DNA of 31,491 bases, from NCBI GenBank assembly GCA_903832165.1, contig CAILAQ010000043.1:1-31491 (forward strand). Reading direction: 5' to 3'. Each line of letters starts with the position of its first letter. The first letter of the stretch is position 1. This document shows, piece after piece, positions 8,273 to 24,529 of the stretch. The notes beneath the pieces were generated by a model. It saw only the letters and a program-made list of their open reading frames with translations, had not been told where the DNA came from and did no database searches. The position numbers were made by a program, and so were the translations under genes. The DNA comes from an uncultured Bacteroidota bacterium. Its GTDB lineage: Bacteria > Bacteroidota > Bacteroidia > Bacteroidales > UBA12481.

Positions 8273-9292
8273 ATGTTAGATAGGGTTAAACAGCTAATCG
8301 CTGAGGTGGAGAAGTTCGATACCGATATGGCGGAGGTGGCGGAAGAGTTCCGCATTCGCATGTTGGGGAAAAAGGGCGAAATAACGGAGCTTTTTGAGAA
8401 ATTCAAGGAGGTGGCTCCGCAGGATAAAAGAGCTTTCGGTCAGGAACTGAACGTTCTGAAAACCATTGCAATAAATAAGCTTAAGGAACTCCAGGAAAAG
8501 CACAAAAAGAGCTTCCGGATCGATCCGACCATCGACCTTACCCTCCCCGGCGACCCGATGCCCCTCGGCTCACGTCACCCGGTATCGCTCGTGCGTAATG
8601 AGATCATCGATATTTTCAGCCGCCTGGGTTTCACTATATCCAACGGCCCGGAAATTGAAGACGACTGGCATGTGTTCTCTGCCCTCAACTTTCCGCCGGA
8701 ACACCCGGCCCGCGATATGCAGGATACTTTCTTTATCGAGTCGGACCCTGATATCCTCCTGCGTACCCATACCTCATCGGTTCAGGTCCGCGTGATGGAA
8801 AAACAGAAGCCGCCCATCCGTACCATCAGCCCCGGTCGCGTTTTCCGCAACGAAGCCATCTCCGCCCGCTCACATTGTATATTCCATCAGGTGGAAGGCC
8901 TGTATATCAATAAGAATGTATCATTTGCCGATCTGAAACAGACATTGCTTTTCTTCTCAAAAGAGATGTTCGGCAAGGATACCCAAATCCGCCTCCGCCC
9001 ATCATTCTTCCCGTTCACCGAACCATCCGCCGAAATGGACGTATCATGCACCCTCTGCGGCGGTAAAGGCTGCAACATGTGCAAATACACCGGCTGGCTC
9101 GAAATTCTCGGCTGCGGAATGGTCGATCCCAACGTACTCGACAGTGTCGGCATCGATAGTCAGGAATACACCGGCTTCGCCTTCGGAATGGGGATTGAAC
9201 GGATTGCCTTACTAAAGTTCGGAATCAAGGACATCAGACTGCTCTTTGAGAACGACGTCAGATTCCTCCGCCAATTTACTTCCGCCCTGTAA
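8273..9292 (+). CDS. pheS: Phenylalanine--tRNA ligase alpha subunit
   Basis: GSRHP, HPARDMQDTF, LLRTHTSSVQ, FHQVEGL, RLRPSFFPFTEPSAE, GFAFGMGIERI. Confidence 0.98.
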   Translation: MLDRVKQLIAEVEKFDTDMAEVAEEFRIRMLGKKGEITELFEKFKEVAPQDKRAFGQELNVLKTIAINKLKELQEKHKKSFRIDPTIDLTLPGDPMPLGSRHPVSLVRNEIIDIFSRLGFTISNGPEIEDDWHVFSALNFPPEHPARDMQDTFFIESDPDILLRTHTSSVQVRVMEKQKPPIRTISPGRVFRNEAISARSHCIFHQVEGLYINKNVSFADLKQTLLFFSKEMFGKDTQIRLRPSFFPFTEPSAEMDVSCTLCGGKGCNMCKYTGWLEILGCGMVDPNVLDSVGIDSQEYTGFAFGMGIERIALLKFGIKDIRLLFENDVRFLRQFTSAL

Positions 9293-9380
9293 CAGGCTTC
9301 GCTCGCGCTCAGCTATCAGGCGCTGCGTGCTAACAGGTTCGATTCGCTCACTAATAGGCTCGGCTACGCCTCGCTAATTA
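9290..9380. repeat. Mini-array of TAWYAGG heptamers separated by GC-rich 10-17 nt segments
   Basis: TAACAGG(9290), TATCAGG(9314), TAACAGG(9331), TAATAGG(9352), degenerate TAATTAT(9375). Confidence 0.6.
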
Positions 9381-11557: not shown

Positions 11558-12913
11558 ATGAGAAAAGTTGAAAATTTTACATTTGGATACCTGTTCGTGA
11601 GGCTATGGCCAAGATTCTCCTTCAAGCATATTTTTTACCGCCGGACAGAAATCCGCGGACTCGATAAATTCCGCAGTAACGATCCGCTCATTTTTGCCCC
11701 CAATCACCAGAATGCCCTCATGGACGCCCTGGTTTTCGTGACAACCCTGCCGCAGCAGCCGATTTTTCTTGCCCGTGCCGATATCTTCAAGCCAGGTCTC
11801 CTCACCCGGTTCCTGAATTTTATCAAAATGATGCCCGTTTACCGCATCCGCGATGGCTATGAAAATCTGGCCAAAAATCAGGAAGTGTTCGACCGCTGTA
11901 CCGAAATATTGCGCACCGGCCACTCCCTCTGCATGTTTCCTGAAGGCAACCACGGCGACAAGCGCTTTTTCCGCCCGCTGAAAAAAGGGTTGGCCCGAAT
12001 CGCCTTCGAAGCCGAGGACGCGTGCGACTTTAAACTTGGTCTCATGATTGTCCCTTGCGGAATCGACTATTCCAATTATGAAAATGTTCGGGGCCGCCTC
12101 ACGGTCAGCTACGGCGATCCTATCACCATAACCGATCTGAAAGAGGTGTACCGCAGCGATCCGCAAACCGCTCTCAAAGAGCTGAATAATCGCATACGAA
12201 TCAATATCGAGCCCCACATGATCGAGATCCCCTGGGAGGATATTTATTTTATGGTGATGGACCTCAGGATAATGTACGGCAAGCGCTTCCGTGAACTGAA
12301 AAATCTTCCGGGAAAAACCCTCTTCAATAAATTCGACGCAGATAAGGAGATGATCCGCATGATCGGTACCCTCCGCGAAACCGAACCGGAAAAAATTGCC
12401 AGCCTTAACAGCCTGGTGATGGAATACTGGAAACTTTTGAAGAAACACAATTTCCGCGACCACACCGTCGAAAATCAGCCATACGGACCGCTGCGCCTGA
12501 TATGGAACACCATCATACTGGCCATCGGATTTCCGCTGCACCTCTATTCCCTGATCAACAATTACCACCTGTTCCGTATCCCGATGATCCTGTCGCGCAA
12601 GCTTTTCAAGGATCCCCAGTTCTGGTCAACAGGCGCTTTTGTAATCAGCATGATCGCCATGCTGCCGCTAAGCTATGCCATTCAAACCCTCATTGTCGGA
12701 CTGATATTCAAATCCTGGTTGATCTGCCTTGCCTATTGGGCCACCCTGCTGCCCGCATCGCTGTACATGCTCCACTACATGTTCGAAAACCGCAAATGGC
12801 GCTCACGTATCCGATTCATGTGGATGAAAGGCAGGAAAAACAAGGATATTGACAGGCTGACTGAGCTGCGAAAAGAAATTTTAATCAAAATGGACGGTTT
12901 GGTTAGGGAGTAG
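11558..12913 (+). CDS. 1-acyl-sn-glycerol-3-phosphate acyltransferase family protein
   Basis: NHQNALMD (HX4D), FLARADIF, FPEG motifs; C-terminal membrane segments. Confidence 0.88.
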   Translation: MRKVENFTFGYLFVRLWPRFSFKHIFYRRTEIRGLDKFRSNDPLIFAPNHQNALMDALVFVTTLPQQPIFLARADIFKPGLLTRFLNFIKMMPVYRIRDGYENLAKNQEVFDRCTEILRTGHSLCMFPEGNHGDKRFFRPLKKGLARIAFEAEDACDFKLGLMIVPCGIDYSNYENVRGRLTVSYGDPITITDLKEVYRSDPQTALKELNNRIRINIEPHMIEIPWEDIYFMVMDLRIMYGKRFRELKNLPGKTLFNKFDADKEMIRMIGTLRETEPEKIASLNSLVMEYWKLLKKHNFRDHTVENQPYGPLRLIWNTIILAIGFPLHLYSLINNYHLFRIPMILSRKLFKDPQFWSTGAFVISMIAMLPLSYAIQTLIVGLIFKSWLICLAYWATLLPASLYMLHYMFENRKWRSRIRFMWMKGRKNKDIDRLTELRKEILIKMDGLVRE

Positions 12914-12989
12914 GTAGTACTCAGTCGGCAGTCTTCAGTACTCAGTACTCAGTACTCGGTACGACAGCATAAAGGTCCCCGCTTCAAAA

Positions 12990-13061
12990 TGTCGTGGTAA
13001 GGGGCGGGGTCCCCGCCTCCGGCTTCGCCTTCGCGGAGATGACAACTCTATCGGGGGCAAT
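12990..13061 (+). repeat. 72-bp REP-like unit, left-arm copy
   Basis: TCGTGGTAAGGGGCGGGGTCCCCGCCTCCGGCTTCGCCTTCGCGGAGATGACAACTCTATCGGGGG, inverted relative to 13433-13576. Confidence 0.9.
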
Positions 13062-13079
13062 TAGCGCGTTAAAATCTGG

Positions 13080-13370
13080 TCAAAGGGTAGAGGTGATATC
13101 GTTCCAGCCAGGGTTGGATTTGTTAATAAGGTTGTCTTTCCACTCGCGATTCCATTTTTTCAGTTGTTTCTCACGCTTAATGGCTTGATCAACATACTTA
13201 AATGACTCGTAATAAACAAGCTTACAAATGTTGTATCTCCAAGTAAATCCCGAATTCAAATGACTTTTGTATTCAGAAATTCGCCTTTTAACATCATTTG
13301 AAAACCCGACATAAATAACCTTGTTATTTTCAGTAGACATGATGTAAACAAAAAATGAATAGGTACCCAT
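13080..13370 (-). CDS. Small stand-alone GIY-YIG nuclease (Slx1/UPF0213-like bacterial group)
   Basis: FVYIM...IYVG.S.D..RR..E, KLVYYE, AIKREKQLKKWNREWK..LI.K.NP.W.D. Visibly AT-richer than its neighbours. Confidence 0.9.
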   Translation of the reverse strand: MGTYSFFVYIMSTENNKVIYVGFSNDVKRRISEYKSHLNSGFTWRYNICKLVYYESFKYVDQAIKREKQLKKWNREWKDNLINKSNPGWNDITSTL

Positions 13371-13432
13371 TTGCTTCTTTTCTCATTATAGACGCAAAAA
13401 AGTCACCCAAATGGAGAAATCTATCTTACATA

Positions 13433-13576
13433 TTTACCCCCGATAGAGTTGTCATCCCCGCGAAGGCGAAGCCGGAGGCGGGGACCCCGTCCCTTACCAC
13501 GAAATTTACCCCCGATAGAGTTGTCATCCCCGCGAAGGCGAAGCCGGAGGCGGGGACCCCGTCCCTTACCACGAAA
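13433..13576. repeat. Two identical tandem 72-bp REP-like units
   Basis: TTTACCCCCGATAGAGTTGTCATCCCCGCGAAGGCGAAGCCGGAGGCGGGGACCCCGTCCCTTACCACGAAA at 13433-13504 and 13505-13576, no mismatches. Confidence 0.95.
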
Positions 13577-13635
13577 CTACGCGGGGACCTTTACGCTGCC
13601 TTACTGAGTACTGAGTACTGAAGACTGAAAACTAC

Positions 13636-16185
13636 CTACTCCCTCACCACCTTAATCACCTTCCGGTCTTTTCCGTTAATCACTGCCACCAGGTAAACCC
13701 CCGCCGGAACCCCACTCATGTCTATCTGAACGTTGCTGCCCGACGAAAGTCTCTCTGTCTTTATCATTCTTCCGTCTAAAGTGAGCAAAGTCATCAGCAG
13801 CTCACTCTGTTCCATACTTCCTGCGGAGATGTTTAGTCTTTCCCTGCAGGGGTTAGGATAAGCCGAAACGGTAATTCCGCCGCCCGCAGCAATATCTTCC
13901 ACACCGTTGAACACAGCGATTTTGAAGTCCCAGATGCCCCGGCCGTAAGTGCTGAACCTTGCCGTACGCAACACCGGAATATAATCAACCCCCCAGTAAG
14001 TCTGCTGCGGAGCCGACAGGCCCGACAGTTCGTACCACTGATCTTTCGCCACGATATAAACCCACGGACCAACCTCGGAGGCCGCGAAAAGCAAGCTACC
14101 GTCTGAATTGCAGGTCATCTCATAAATCAGGCTGTTCTTCAGCCCTTTGTTCATCATCTGGAACGTAAGGCCCCCATCGTGCGATACCCACACAGGCGAG
14201 CCCGAATATCCGCTCCCGGCAAGCCAGATGGTGTTGATGTCGCGCGGCGACGGTACAATGCTGTTTCCATAAAAATAGTGACTGTCCGGACCGCGGTTCG
14301 TGGATTGGGTATACGTGGTGCCACGGTCGGTGGACGTGAAAAATTTACCGGACGAATTGAGCACGTAACGATAGTCTTTATTGATGGGCGAAAAAGCCAT
14401 GGAGGCAATGCGGGTATTTGGATCGCCATTGCTGAAATCCGTCGGCAGCTCGGAGTAAGTGATGCCGGCTGTGGTATAGGTGAGATACCATAAATGAGCT
14501 CCGGTAGTGGAGGTTCCACCGGCCAGATATACCCGCTCGGGGAAGTAAGGATCCGCCAGGAGAGGAGGCATCCAGTACTGATTCTTCATCTTCATATCGT
14601 CGAAACCCTTGGTCGACATGGCATTGCTTACTGAAGCATCAGGATAGTACATGGCAAATCCGGGATATACAGTCCACATGCTGTTGCCCCCGTCGCCCGA
14701 TACAATATGCCCGTAATCGCCGCTGATCGTCTGGTCGAACTTCACTGCCCTGTCATTCACCTCCCAGCTCTTCTGAAATCCCTGATCCTGCGAACCAACG
14801 TAAATTACATTTGTCTTGGTCCGATGGGTATAACTTCCATAATACTGACTGATATTCAATCCGTTAAGTGATACGTTCGTCACTCCAGCCAATTGATTTT
14901 CTGAACTATAGGATCCCCCGTCGGTGCTCACATAAGCCAGATCGGTACCATCGGGCTTTTTAAAAAACTCCACCTCTGGGATATCGGCATGAAGCTTGTG
15001 TGCCATATCACCGTAATAGTCGCCCCAGCCATTCACATAAATCCAGGTAACTCCGCCATCATTGCTGTACTGAACCTCCATGCCCCCGAAGGCAATCAGG
15101 TTCGGATTGGTTGGCGAGGCGCCGAAACTGTTCGACATGAAGGGTCCCTGGTCCACCGATCCGCGATAAGTCCAGCCGGTACCTCCTGGAGCCGATCCGT
15201 AAAAGCGGCTTGCCTTGTCGAGCCGGAACATCGCATAAAGACCGGTAACCGAGGAAATCGTGTTGCCCGCCAATTGTACCTGGTTGATTTCACTGGTGGC
15301 GAAATTCAGATTCACATCGGCAGTTTTCAGCCAGGCAGTGGAATCCTGCAGGGAGTATACCTGATTTTTATCGATCAGGTACAAGGAATCTGTGCCGAAT
15401 CTGTTCGTCCAGATATCGGACAAATTCGATCCGTTGCTTTTGACAATCCGTGTAAAAGTGGCGCCGAGATCTTTCGACCGGAACAGAAAAAGCGAGGGTG
15501 ATTTGTATGCCAGTATATAAAGAGTGCCATCGGCCTGACTCACCGAGCGAATCAGGTTGTATCCGTTATAATAGGATGATAATCCGCCGCTTAACTTCCA
15601 TGTGATGCCCATGTCGTCGGAATAATTCATGCGAACCCGGTCGTTCGATGCCAGCACTCGGGTACCACCGGCAAACGGAAAAGCTCTGATAAACTGAATA
15701 TTACTGATTCGGTAAGGATCGGAAATGGTTTTCCAGTTCTGCCCGTCGATGGTTCCCACAAAAATCTGTCCGCCATCTGCGGCTGCATACAGGCGGTTAT
15801 TGGTAAAGTCGACGTCAACACAATGCACCCGGCCAGCCAGATTGCTGCTTCCTTTTTCTATCCACTGCCCAGTCAGGGAACCATCGGCTATTCTTTCGAT
15901 CACCCCACTCTTGAGCTGTCCTGTGCGTGCGGCCTCCTGCAACGCGGGCAGCCGTTCCTGGTACATTTCGAACCTGGTCTGCTGGTCCATTTCGCGCCAG
16001 TCAACTCCTGGTGCGGCCTGGTGCATGGCATCAATCCACTCCTGCCTTTTGATTTGGTTATCAGATTCTTCGGACATAATTTCAACCGGCTGCGGCTTAA
16101 CAGTTTGTTTCGTGAGCAGAAGTCCTGTAAAAACTGCCGTGCCGGCTATCAGCAGCGTGACAGCCAAATAAATATATCGCTTCAT
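13636..16185 (-). CDS. T9SS-secreted BNR/Asp-box beta-propeller (VPS10-like) protein
   Basis: Signal/anchor MKRYIYLAVTLLIAGTAVF; Asp-boxes SDDMGITW, SKDLGATF, SNDGGVTW, STDRGTTY, SHDGGLTF; CTD AYPNPC...GVYLV...KVIKVVRE. Confidence 0.8.
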   Translation of the reverse strand: MKRYIYLAVTLLIAGTAVFTGLLLTKQTVKPQPVEIMSEESDNQIKRQEWIDAMHQAAPGVDWREMDQQTRFEMYQERLPALQEAARTGQLKSGVIERIADGSLTGQWIEKGSSNLAGRVHCVDVDFTNNRLYAAADGGQIFVGTIDGQNWKTISDPYRISNIQFIRAFPFAGGTRVLASNDRVRMNYSDDMGITWKLSGGLSSYYNGYNLIRSVSQADGTLYILAYKSPSLFLFRSKDLGATFTRIVKSNGSNLSDIWTNRFGTDSLYLIDKNQVYSLQDSTAWLKTADVNLNFATSEINQVQLAGNTISSVTGLYAMFRLDKASRFYGSAPGGTGWTYRGSVDQGPFMSNSFGASPTNPNLIAFGGMEVQYSNDGGVTWIYVNGWGDYYGDMAHKLHADIPEVEFFKKPDGTDLAYVSTDGGSYSSENQLAGVTNVSLNGLNISQYYGSYTHRTKTNVIYVGSQDQGFQKSWEVNDRAVKFDQTISGDYGHIVSGDGGNSMWTVYPGFAMYYPDASVSNAMSTKGFDDMKMKNQYWMPPLLADPYFPERVYLAGGTSTTGAHLWYLTYTTAGITYSELPTDFSNGDPNTRIASMAFSPINKDYRYVLNSSGKFFTSTDRGTTYTQSTNRGPDSHYFYGNSIVPSPRDINTIWLAGSGYSGSPVWVSHDGGLTFQMMNKGLKNSLIYEMTCNSDGSLLFAASEVGPWVYIVAKDQWYELSGLSAPQQTYWGVDYIPVLRTARFSTYGRGIWDFKIAVFNGVEDIAAGGGITVSAYPNPCRERLNISAGSMEQSELLMTLLTLDGRMIKTERLSSGSNVQIDMSGVPAGVYLVAVINGKDRKVIKVVRE

Positions 16186-16201
16186 GGTAAAATAGGTGTA
16201 A

Positions 16202-17224
16202 TCAGAATAATCTTGATTGCGATTCGCCGGGAACCTTGCCCAGGTGAATATAAGCTTTTTCCGTGGCTTCACGACCGCGTGGCGTGCGTTTAAGATAACC
16301 TTCCTGAATCAGGAATGGTTCGTAAACCTCTTCGATAGTACCCGGCTCTTCACCCACGGATACCGCAATGGTATTGAGCCCTACCGGACCGCCGCTGAAT
16401 TTGTTCACCAGGGTATTCAAAATGCGGTTATCCATTTCGTCGAGTCCATGTGCATCAATGTTCAGTGCATTCAATCCATGCCTGGTAATCGCTATGTCGA
16501 TTTTACCATCGCCTTTTACCTGCGCAAAATCCCGGATCCTCCGAAGCAAAGCATTGGCAATCCTCGGTGTTCCCCGGCTGCGCGTGGCAATCTCAATGGA
16601 AGCATCATCGGATATCTGAACGTTCAGTATGGAGGCCGACCGCTTGACAATGCGGTTGAGTACCTCTTTGTTGTAATATTCAAGGTAACAGGTAATCCCG
16701 AATCTGGCCCTTAACGGACTGGTAAGCAGGCCCGAACGGGTAGTTGCACCAATCAGCGTAAAAGGATTCAGATCGAGCTGGATCGATCGTGCCCCCGGCC
16801 CCTTATCGATCATGATGTCAATCCTGTAATCCTCCATGGCCGAGTACAGGTATTCTTCAACTACAGGACTCAGCCTGTGTATTTCATCGATAAATAATAC
16901 ATCGCCCTTCTCAAGCGAAGTAAGCAATCCTGCCAGATCACCAGGCTTATCCAGAACAGGGCCCGATGTCATTTTCATGCCAACACGCAATTCTTTGGAA
17001 ATAATATGCGAAAGGGTGGTTTTTCCTAGTCCGGGGGGGCCATGCAGCAATACATGGTCAAGCGCCTCGCCACGCATGGTGGCAGCCTGAACAAATACCC
17101 GAAGATTGCTGATGACTTTTTCCTGACCCGAAAAATCGGAAAACTCTATCGGCCTTAACTGCCGTTCAATTTCCTGATCATCGGTTTGTTCGTCAGGTTC
17201 CCTGAAATCATAGGGTTCAGACAT
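16202..17224 (-). CDS. ruvB: Holliday junction branch migration helicase RuvB
   Basis: [59 protein letters not shown]. Confidence 0.98.
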
Positions 17225-23188: not shown

Positions 23189-24529
23189 ATGAAAAATCGG
23201 AGAGATTTTCTGAAAACGGCAGCTTTATCAGCAATTGGTGTAGCTGCTGCTCCTGCATTAAATGCCGCGGTTAGGGACGGGGTCCCGACTTTGCATAGTG
23301 CCGCGGTTAGGGACGGGGTCCCCGCCTCCGGCTTCGCCTTCGCGGGGATGACAAAAGATGGTGCAGAGCAGATTCAGGCTGATCTGTTGAAAAATTTGCC
23401 GGAAATTGTGCGGGAAGATTACCTTGCGCGGCAGGAAAAGGCCCGCGAATGGATGCTTAAATCGAACATTGATGCCCTATTCGTAGAGGGAGGAAATAAT
23501 CTGGGCTATTTTACTAATACCGCATGGTGGAGCAGTGAGCGGGTTTTTGGCTTCCTCCTGAGTCCGCATGCTGAGATGGTCTGGATCTGTCCGGCCTTTG
23601 AAAAAGCACGTGCTGAGGAAGTTATCGAGTATGGTAAAGATATCAGGGTATGGCATGAGCATGAGAGCCCCTACTCTATTTTCGCTGATTACCTGAAATC
23701 AATCGGCAAGCCGGGCGGAAAAATCGGAGTCGACCCCAATGCCCGTAGTTTTGTGAATGAAGGAATCCGCAGAGCTGGTGGTGCGCAGGTGGTTGATGGT
23801 TCCGTGATTACCGAAAATACCCGGGCCGTGAAAACAGCCAAGGAAATTCAATTAATGGATGTGGCCAACCGCATTACAAAGCTGGCCTTCAAAAAAGGAT
23901 TCGCTCAGCTGCATGAAGGAATGACTACCGGTGAGTTCAGCAAGATAGTTTCTCAGGCTCATACCGATATGGGTGTTTTGGGCGGCGGCGGACCGCTCTT
24001 CGGTACCAACGCCGCTTTTCCGCATGGAACAAAATTTATTAAAACCCTGGAGCAGGGCGATGTGGTGTTAGTGGATGGTGGTTGTTCGTTAAAAGGTTAT
24101 AAATCAGATGTTACGCGAACCGCCATCTTAGGCAAGCCATCCGATGAGCTGAAAAAGGTATTTGAAACGGTATGGAATGCCCAGCAGGCAGCCTTTAAAG
24201 CGATACATAACGGAGCGATTTGTGGCGATGTGGATGCTGCAGCACGCAAGGAAATGGCTAAGGGCGGATATGGCGCCGACTATGAATATTTTACTCATCG
24301 CCTGGGTCATGGTATCGGTACTGAAGGCCACGAATTTCCATATCTGGTAAGAAATAATAAACTGAAAATGACTACCGGAATGACCTTTACAAACGAGCCG
24401 GGACTCTACCTGTACGGTAAGTTTGGCGTGAGAATCGAGGATTCACTGGTGGTGACCGATAACGGCTGCAAAATTCTCGGCGGCATGCCTTGTTTGTCGA
24501 TGGATAATATACTCAGTGATTCTCTGTAG
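23189..24529 (+). CDS. Tat-exported Xaa-Pro peptidase (M24B family) carrying an in-frame REP insertion
   Basis: MKNRRDFLK twin-arginine signal; metal ligands VD.G, SDVTRT, HRLGHGIG.EGHE, TNEPG, GVRIED. Confidence 0.9.
   Translation: MKNRRDFLKTAALSAIGVAAAPALNAAVRDGVPTLHSAAVRDGVPASGFAFAGMTKDGAEQIQADLLKNLPEIVREDYLARQEKAREWMLKSNIDALFVEGGNNLGYFTNTAWWSSERVFGFLLSPHAEMVWICPAFEKARAEEVIEYGKDIRVWHEHESPYSIFADYLKSIGKPGGKIGVDPNARSFVNEGIRRAGGAQVVDGSVITENTRAVKTAKEIQLMDVANRITKLAFKKGFAQLHEGMTTGEFSKIVSQAHTDMGVLGGGGPLFGTNAAFPHGTKFIKTLEQGDVVLVDGGCSLKGYKSDVTRTAILGKPSDELKKVFETVWNAQQAAFKAIHNGAICGDVDAAARKEMAKGGYGADYEYFTHRLGHGIGTEGHEFPYLVRNNKLKMTTGMTFTNEPGLYLYGKFGVRIEDSLVVTDNGCKILGGMPCLSMDNILSDSL
23263..23354 (+). 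repeat. In-frame REP-like unit preceded by a partial duplicate
   Basis: 23305-23354 matches the GIY-YIG-associated unit at 49/50. TGCCGCGGTTAGGGACGGGGTCCC occurs at 23263 and 23299 (36-bp period). Confidence 0.92.

Follow-up and report, generated by a model that had tools for sequence, protein, structure and literature searches.

The stretch of DNA analysed here (the window) comprises 31,491 nucleotides of contig CAILAQ010000043.1, which belongs to a 955-contig, 4.9-Mb metagenome-assembled genome (MAG; the study genome, G000) obtained from a lake-water metagenome; other contigs of this genome are labelled with C-numbers and its relatives G0xx. The gap between two convergent genes of the window, encoding an acyltransferase and a protein sorted by the type IX secretion system (T9SS), is the site of a cassette in which a small GIY-YIG nuclease gene, ssn, lies between inverted copies of a hairpin repeat. 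The Ssn family (cd10448; prototype SsnA of Neisseria meningitidis) and its associated NTS/SRM repeats were described by Chenal et al. (Nat Commun 2025, PMC11893778), and the locus is very probably an Ssn/SRM locus, that is, an Ssn-family GIY-YIG gene accompanied by its cognate NTS-like hairpin repeats, the Ssn-related motifs (SRMs). It is a new example of that published system and not a new kind of element. The features of the cassette are:

13080-13370, minus strand: ssn, gene of a 96-amino-acid, single-domain GIY-YIG nuclease (Pfam PF01541, E 1.2e-16)
13432-13503 and 13504-13575, plus strand: two identical tandem repeat units of 72 nt, upstream of ssn (sequence self-comparison)
13451-13486 and 13523-13558, plus strand: SRM cores of the upstream units, long-loop, reverse relative to ssn (hairpin match)
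12987-13063, minus strand: single inverted repeat unit downstream of ssn, 94% complementary to the upstream units
13008-13043: SRM core of the downstream unit, forward relative to ssn, with one stem mismatch (TCTCCGC)
13371-13431, minus strand: leader and probable promoter of ssn, from the upstream hairpin unit to the start codon, conserved in the G012 orthologue

Sequence comparison located every block of the inverted arms where the original prediction had placed it, and the gene between them proved to be the stand-alone GIY-YIG gene that had been proposed, with the Pfam domain spanning residues 6-78 of the product. The gene was also, as claimed, richer in AT than its surroundings (34.7% GC, compared to 49-51% in the flanking genes and 45.7% in the genome). 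The upstream SRM hairpins are situated 81 and 153 nt from ssn, while the downstream hairpin lies 40 nt past the stop codon. The predicted folding of the 72-nt unit into a TCCCCGC/GCGGGGA stem with a nested GGC/GCC hairpin was reproduced, except that the copy in the left arm carries the stem mismatch listed above. Folding-energy z-scores of single repeat units were not significant, and the hairpin structure is supported because of the compensatory stem changes presented below and not by folding energy; an Rfam scan of positions 12500-14000 gave no match to an RNA family. A Logan contig of 459 nt covers the ssn gene and extends into both flanking repeats. No independent Logan contig spans 13465-13546, so that the tandem unit count given above may be affected by the assembly.

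Family membership of the encoded protein

The relationship of the encoded protein to the Ssn family was assessed through other genomes of the genus Neisseria, as a proxy for N. meningitidis SsnA. Matches were obtained in 20 of the 61 Neisseria-genus genomes, and in all ten loci that were fetched a canonical NTS or an SRM was found beside the gene. The identity to these NTS-flanked proteins was 42-48% (E values down to 8.7e-25 in the genome search and 1e-28 by tblastn), so that by this proxy the protein falls within the limit of E < 1e-10 by which homology to SsnA was defined (PMC11893778). A gammaproteobacterial MAG also encoded an NTS-adjacent homologue, with 45% identity, and 38% identity was obtained with an SRM-flanked homologue of Sphingopyxis, the stem of which (TCCCCGC) is the same as that at the study locus. 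In the alignment of homologues the GIY-YIG catalytic residues Y9, Y20, G22, R30, and E67 were invariant, and the C-terminal motif REKQLKKWNRxWK..LI..NP was shared with the Ssn proteins. The genomes of N. lactamica NS19 and N. mucosa, in which no Ssn homologue was found, encode a small GIY-YIG protein that is UPF0213-like and has neither NTS nor SRM nearby. No NCBIfam model was matched above its cut-off. On every sequence criterion tested, the protein thus qualifies as a member of the Ssn family.

The original prediction had instead likened the protein to Slx1-type enzymes, and in a rival explanation a structure-specific nuclease of the Slx1/UPF0213 type would resolve cruciforms formed by the long inverted arms. 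Slx1 acts with Slx4 on branched duplex DNA, and both Slx1 and UPF0213/YhbQ have in common with the study protein a small GIY-YIG domain. The arms could indeed extrude as a cruciform, and a sequence search of the PDB, with no solved Ssn structure among its matches, returned UPF0213 proteins as the nearest solved relatives, weakly (1zg2, E 1.5e-4). This explanation did not hold when sequences were compared, since the identity to the one UPF0213-type protein aligned, from Neisseria, was only 18% against the 42-48% obtained with NTS-flanked Ssn proteins, and the C-terminal motif present in the study protein is specific to Ssn. Furthermore, the characterised Ssn enzymes, which are site-specific, cut only single-stranded DNA (ssDNA), on one strand and just 5' of the hairpin, and are inactive on double-stranded DNA (PMC11893778). 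A cruciform-resolving enzyme is therefore considered very improbable. A GIY-YIG homing endonuclease (I-TevI, Seg) was likewise rejected, as the protein consists of a single domain of 96 amino acids with no C-terminal DNA-binding domain and scored far below the cut-off of TIGR01453.

Association of the nuclease gene with the hairpin repeat

The repeat core at ssn, GTCATCCCCGCG..GCGGGGACC, corresponds to the 28-nt Neisseria repeat NTS, CGTCATTCCCGCGMAVGCGGGAATCYRG, with one compensated stem change (T:A to C:G); the general form of the repeat, SRM, is defined with a loop of at most 5 nt (PMC11893778). Short-BLAST searches with the 72-nt unit revealed 159 matches on 90 contigs of the study genome, and a relaxed hairpin pattern recovered 140 copies on 104 contigs compared to none in the reversed genome, in agreement with the earlier proposal that the repeat is dispersed. 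The strict published SRM pattern gave 49 matches, compared to 15.1 in dinucleotide shuffles. Two loop forms were distinguished with the relaxed pattern, one short (81 copies) and one longer by 12 nt (56 copies), the additional nucleotides forming the nested GGC/GCC hairpin. At the variable stem position 94 copies had C:G and 44 had T:A, so that 138 of the 140 were compensated and two uncompensated. When the pattern did not constrain the stem dinucleotide, complementarity was seen in 74 of 76 matches, where 1/16 would be expected. The short-loop core, TGTCATCCCCGCGAAGGCGGGGACCCCG, again differs from NTS by one compensated stem change and fits the strict pattern, while the T-type copies (TTCCCGC/GCGGGAA) are nearly NTS itself. 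The dispersed repeats sit mostly downstream of genes: based on a crude call of open reading frames, 45 hairpins were positioned between tandem genes, 24 between convergent and five between divergent ones.

The strict pattern misses the copies that flank both ssn genes of the study genome, either by loop length or by a loop base; these represent a variant of the repeat and not a failed match. Within the genus, the long-loop form was confined to the three closest species, namely G000 (48 copies), G017 (34), and G012 (5). The locus resembles the published Ssn/NTS-SRM system in its protein of about 95 amino acids with a single GIY-YIG domain and the REKQLKKWNRxWK motif, in the inverted GTCAT-stem-loop-stem hairpins flanking the gene on both sides, in the tens to hundreds of mostly intergenic hairpin copies, and in the joint diversification of nuclease and hairpin variants. 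It differs in that the copies at the study locus are long-loop, with the nested GGC/GCC hairpin, and are missed by the published pattern, in that the conserved unit is 58-72 nt long compared to the 28 nt of NTS, and in that the cassette sits between inverted heptamer arrays. This long-loop variant may serve to probe what an Ssn enzyme recognises.

The study genome contains two such small GIY-YIG genes and no others. The second, on C61, encodes a protein 61% identical to the first and is also placed between convergent genes, with a diverged hairpin forming inverted arms of 82 nt on either side of it. A survey of 30 family-level homologues from 41 relatives revealed the same arrangement in about 21 of them, with a reverse hairpin approximately 76-170 nt upstream and a forward hairpin approximately 13-76 nt downstream of the gene. 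The stems matched on both sides of each gene and differed between paralogues (TCCCCGC, TCCCGAC, TCCCGGC, TCCCTGC, and TCCTCGC), and in the phylogenetic tree, from which an interrupted copy of G018 was excluded due to its long branch, the protein clades tracked the stem type. These results bear out the expectation that homologues are flanked by inverted, co-varying repeats of their own. At the level of genomes, an Ssn-type gene was present in 17 of 18 relatives with at least nine short-loop hairpins, while the four congeners without such a gene had 0-4 hairpins. An orthologue of the study cassette was detected in G012, at the same site and in the same orientation, with a protein 88% identical; its hairpins are short-loop and of canonical length, and their spacing from the gene is identical to that in the study cassette (the upstream one 81 nt from the start codon). 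Spacing and sequence of the leader are also kept in this orthologue, and the segment 13371-13431 probably acts as the ssn promoter.

A coincidence, in which an unrelated small nuclease gene happened to fall into a repeat-rich convergent intergenic hot spot, has in its favour that the corresponding gap of G021 holds SRMs and a tandem array of ~66-nt units without ssn, and that other congeners have 18-nt periodic arrays there. Such an explanation is contradicted because the geometry recurs across genomes: both paralogues and about 21 of the 30 homologues share the reverse upstream and forward downstream hairpins, near-constant distances and matched stems, and the pairing of gene and hairpin is also seen in Neisseria and Sphingopyxis. 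Chance is accordingly given hardly any weight. For comparison, an SRM was reported near 71% of Ssn homologues, and on both sides in 42% (PMC11893778). The association of gene and repeat is specific and recurrent, not accidental, and the repeat families and nuclease paralogues co-diversified in the genus. In this respect the cassette of nuclease and repeat that had been proposed was upheld, but as a system already published (PMC11893778) and not as a novel one. The present analysis demonstrates membership of the family, the geometry of the cassette, and the co-variation and co-occurrence of gene and repeat.

Several results nevertheless weigh against assigning the locus to the Ssn/SRM system. 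The family membership rests on NTS-flanked homologues of the genus Neisseria and not on N. meningitidis SsnA or a CDD assignment; the three copies flanking ssn fail the strict SRM pattern, with a loop of 15-16 nt compared to the permitted 5 nt or less; and the study genome contains 36-44 copies of the NTS type (TTCCCGC), but neither ssn gene is flanked by that type, so either the cognate nuclease of the T-type hairpins is missing from the assembly or the two stem types are cross-recognised. In addition, 220 short-loop SRMs were counted in G020, a genome of the same genus (92% complete), where the search for an Ssn-type gene gave nothing but a weak GIY-YIG match (E 5e-6); either the gene was unassembled or the repeats persist without it.

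Based on the characterised Ssn homologues, a mechanism can be proposed for the Ssn/SRM locus, and the cleavage chemistry of the study protein would be expected, from homology, to follow theirs. The conserved layout of the cassette consists of a reverse SRM, a leader of ~80 nt, ssn, a spacer of ~40 nt and a forward SRM, and at the study locus it is set within a larger mosaic of other intergenic repeats, namely the heptamer arrays and the AAAGGTCCCCGC block. Binding of the SRM hairpin by the Ssn protein would require single-stranded DNA, such as arises in replication, repair or DNA uptake, and would be limited to the strand reading GTCAT-stem-loop-stem. The cut would lie 5' of the hairpin at a distance of a few nucleotides, probably in the conserved AGAGTT that precedes GTCAT. 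Owing to the inversion of the arms, a different strand would be cleavable on each side, and both cuts would be gene-proximal. The ~140 dispersed repeats may provide further substrates. Candidate roles of such an activity are ssDNA restriction or the control of recombination, and/or propagation of the repeat. The main text of PMC11893778 does not discuss Bacteroidota, and the present locus extends the recently described association of Ssn and hairpin repeats to a freshwater genus that appears to belong to this phylum, as suggested by the T9SS sorting domain encoded next to ssn. Moreover, the paralogues, each with a distinct compensated stem, constitute a ready panel of enzyme/site pairs for the ssDNA-cutting tools that are being developed from the family.

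Occupancy of the acyltransferase/T9SS gap

The gap that contains the cassette is delimited by the following genes:

11558-12913, plus strand: acyltransferase gene, left flank, convergent with the right flank (Pfam PF01553, E 1.6e-20)
13636-16272, minus strand: gene of a BNR/sortilin-like protein with a T9SS C-terminal sorting domain, right flank (Pfam PF18962, PF15902)

Empty junctions between these genes, which had been suggested as something to look for in related genomes, were found in eight congeners (12-220 nt, no SRM), while six carry an ssn cassette in the gap. The six occupants were not monophyletic (approximately unbiased test, p 0.0002) and represent at least three ssn lineages, and the cassette of G008 (L195, contig C3) is turned around with respect to the flanking genes, which is the outcome predicted if the inverted repeat arms can recombine and thereby flip the gene. 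The complete genome of G021 (L217:1250-2330) holds in its gap two SRMs directly after the stop codon of the T9SS gene, and behind them a tandem array of about twelve ~66-nt units (…CCAACCCCGGAGGGGTGGCAGGATTATAGCTGCGTATGTTCCCTGCCACCTGATCTAA…), with no ssn. The differing occupants of the gap suggest that cassettes were replaced or inserted anew; they would also be explained by paralogous cassettes recombining with each other, or by the general collecting of repeats by this gap seen in G021. Beyond what was published, the locus therefore adds a modest repeat variant and suggestive signs of cassette turnover, and the turnover of ssn lineages at one intergenic site provides comparative material on the movement of cassettes and repeats.

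The layout of the cassette recalls two groups of mobile elements, and the authors who described the system likened NTS-ssnA-NTS to insertion sequences/IS200 and to REP/RAYT (PMC11893778). In REPtrons, where a RAYT gene is flanked by inverted repetitive extragenic palindromes (REPs) or bacterial interspersed mosaic elements (BIMEs), a single-copy nuclease gene is likewise bracketed by inverted copies of the dispersed palindrome of the genome, a likeness that concerns the layout only, and the repeats also favour the 3' ends of genes and form part of mosaics with other repeats. The study enzyme, in contrast, is a hydrolytic GIY-YIG nuclease and not an HUH/Y1 transposase, and the GIY-YIG gene was the only gene detected between the arms, where Pfam revealed no HUH/Y1 (IS200-like) transposase. 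GIY-YIG enzymes form no covalent tyrosine-DNA intermediate and therefore have no obvious way to rejoin strands. The IS200/IS605 'peel and paste' elements similarly recognise subterminal hairpins in ssDNA and cleave a short distance from them; they differ in that they use TnpA (HUH) and have both hairpins on one strand, while those at the study locus are inverted.

It is conceivable that the SRM-ssn-SRM cassette is itself mobile, with Ssn acting as a transposase or homing-type nuclease that also moves gene-less repeats, as a GIY-YIG counterpart of IS200/IS605 and REPtrons; this is the view taken in the original prediction. Permissive convergent gaps would then be invaded again and again, or overwritten, by the cassette, which would give rise to new sub-families of the repeat. 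The pattern of empty and occupied gaps, the mixed ancestry of the occupants and the reversed orientation in G008 are consistent with such movement, as are the AT-richness of ssn relative to its host, the abundance of the repeat following the presence of the gene, and the limitation of the long-loop variant to three sister species; if true, this variant arose in their ancestor and expanded to 48, 34, and 5 copies.

Against mobility, no target-site duplication was seen and no defined element ends were found at the locus, the flanks of the congeners being too diverged for boundaries to be determined, and to our knowledge no strand-transfer activity has been reported for GIY-YIG enzymes. The orthologous cassettes of G000 and G012 occupy the same place in the same orientation and were therefore inherited vertically. 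The cleavable strands differ between the inverted arms, paralogous cassettes recombining via their repeats could account for the replacement of lineages, the gap collects other repeats as well (G021), and G020 keeps its 220 SRMs with no ssn found. Public contigs at the locus showed neither excision nor inversion joints, which is a weak test given that such contigs break at repeats and cannot show rare variants; apparent skips in these contigs were considered as excisions and rejected, as they are other mosaic loci (C103- and C672-like). Taken together, a mobile cassette is regarded as unlikely. That Ssn drives the repeat was raised in PMC11893778 as a hypothesis, without demonstration, and the spread of the repeat by the study nuclease is put forward here as a hypothesis as well; if true, this would be the first REP-like repeat family driven by a GIY-YIG enzyme.

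Outer arms and other repeats of the region

The Ssn/SRM cassette lies within outer inverted arms, and a further copy of the hairpin is found elsewhere in the window:

12963-12982, no strand assigned: AAAGGTCCCCGC block, left copy (inverted partner 13581-13600)
12916-12962, no strand assigned: heptamer array (AGTACTC/AGTCGGC/AGTCTTC), left copy (inverted partner 13602-13630)
12901-12918, no strand assigned: outermost inverted block GGTTAGGGAGTAGGTAGT, which holds the final codons and the stop codon of the acyltransferase gene
13581-13648, no strand assigned: right outer arm, with the GCGGGGACCTTT block, a heptamer array, and a block with the VVRE* end of the T9SS-sorted protein gene
23302-23354, minus strand: dispersed long-loop SRM copy, in frame just after the twin-arginine translocation (Tat) signal of a peptidase gene

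The outer inverted blocks (12900-12982 and 13581-13649) match at 85% and include a perfect 26-nt heptamer block (12929-12954 and 13602-13627). These arms are not private to the ssn locus, since inverted heptamer arrays also bracket hairpin units on C103, C672, C840, and C645, and the AAAGGTCCCCGC block also adjoins SRM units on C706, C353, and C672 of the study genome. It was considered whether the outermost 18-nt block is an inverted duplication of a gene end, which is only partly true: the residues 'GLV' belong to the acyltransferase itself, and the two gene ends have in common no more than the outermost ~14 nt, which comprise 'RE', the stop codon, and GTAGT. The acyltransferase tail LVRE* is common to the study genome and its sister species G017, while the tail in G012 is KLMKS*.

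The copy at 23302-23354 was confirmed as a dispersed copy of the repeat, but was rejected as a clean case of insertion and empty site, given that the orthologues of G012, G008, and G017 all carry shorter or longer versions; from these comparisons, the in-frame insert in the Tat peptidase appears to be old and variable, not a fresh insertion. The SRM-derived stretch in frame after the twin-arginine signal extends over positions 23263-23354 of the window.

Other short repeats were also observed in the study genome. The 7-nt units CAGTACT, CAGTCTT, CAGTCGG, and CAGTAGG recur as inverted pairs at many loci, among them 12916-12962 and 13602-13630 of the window, C103:780-1040, C672:720-760, C840:165-480, C645:1760-2060, C733, and C542. 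The heptamer pairs bracket hairpin units together with other short palindromes and thereby form BIME-like mosaics, and the terminal units of the CAGTAGG type often abut gene ends, where they can provide TAG stop codons. In addition, convergent gaps in the genus often hold palindromic arrays of ~18-nt units, composed of GCTAAYNGG and a GC-rich spacer. Such arrays were detected at the C61 locus (L031:1233-1304) and in the acyltransferase/T9SS gaps of G020, G014, G004, and G007, and may be compared with positions 9290-9380 of the window; this family of ~18-nt units is distinct from SRM and rich in TAA/TAG.

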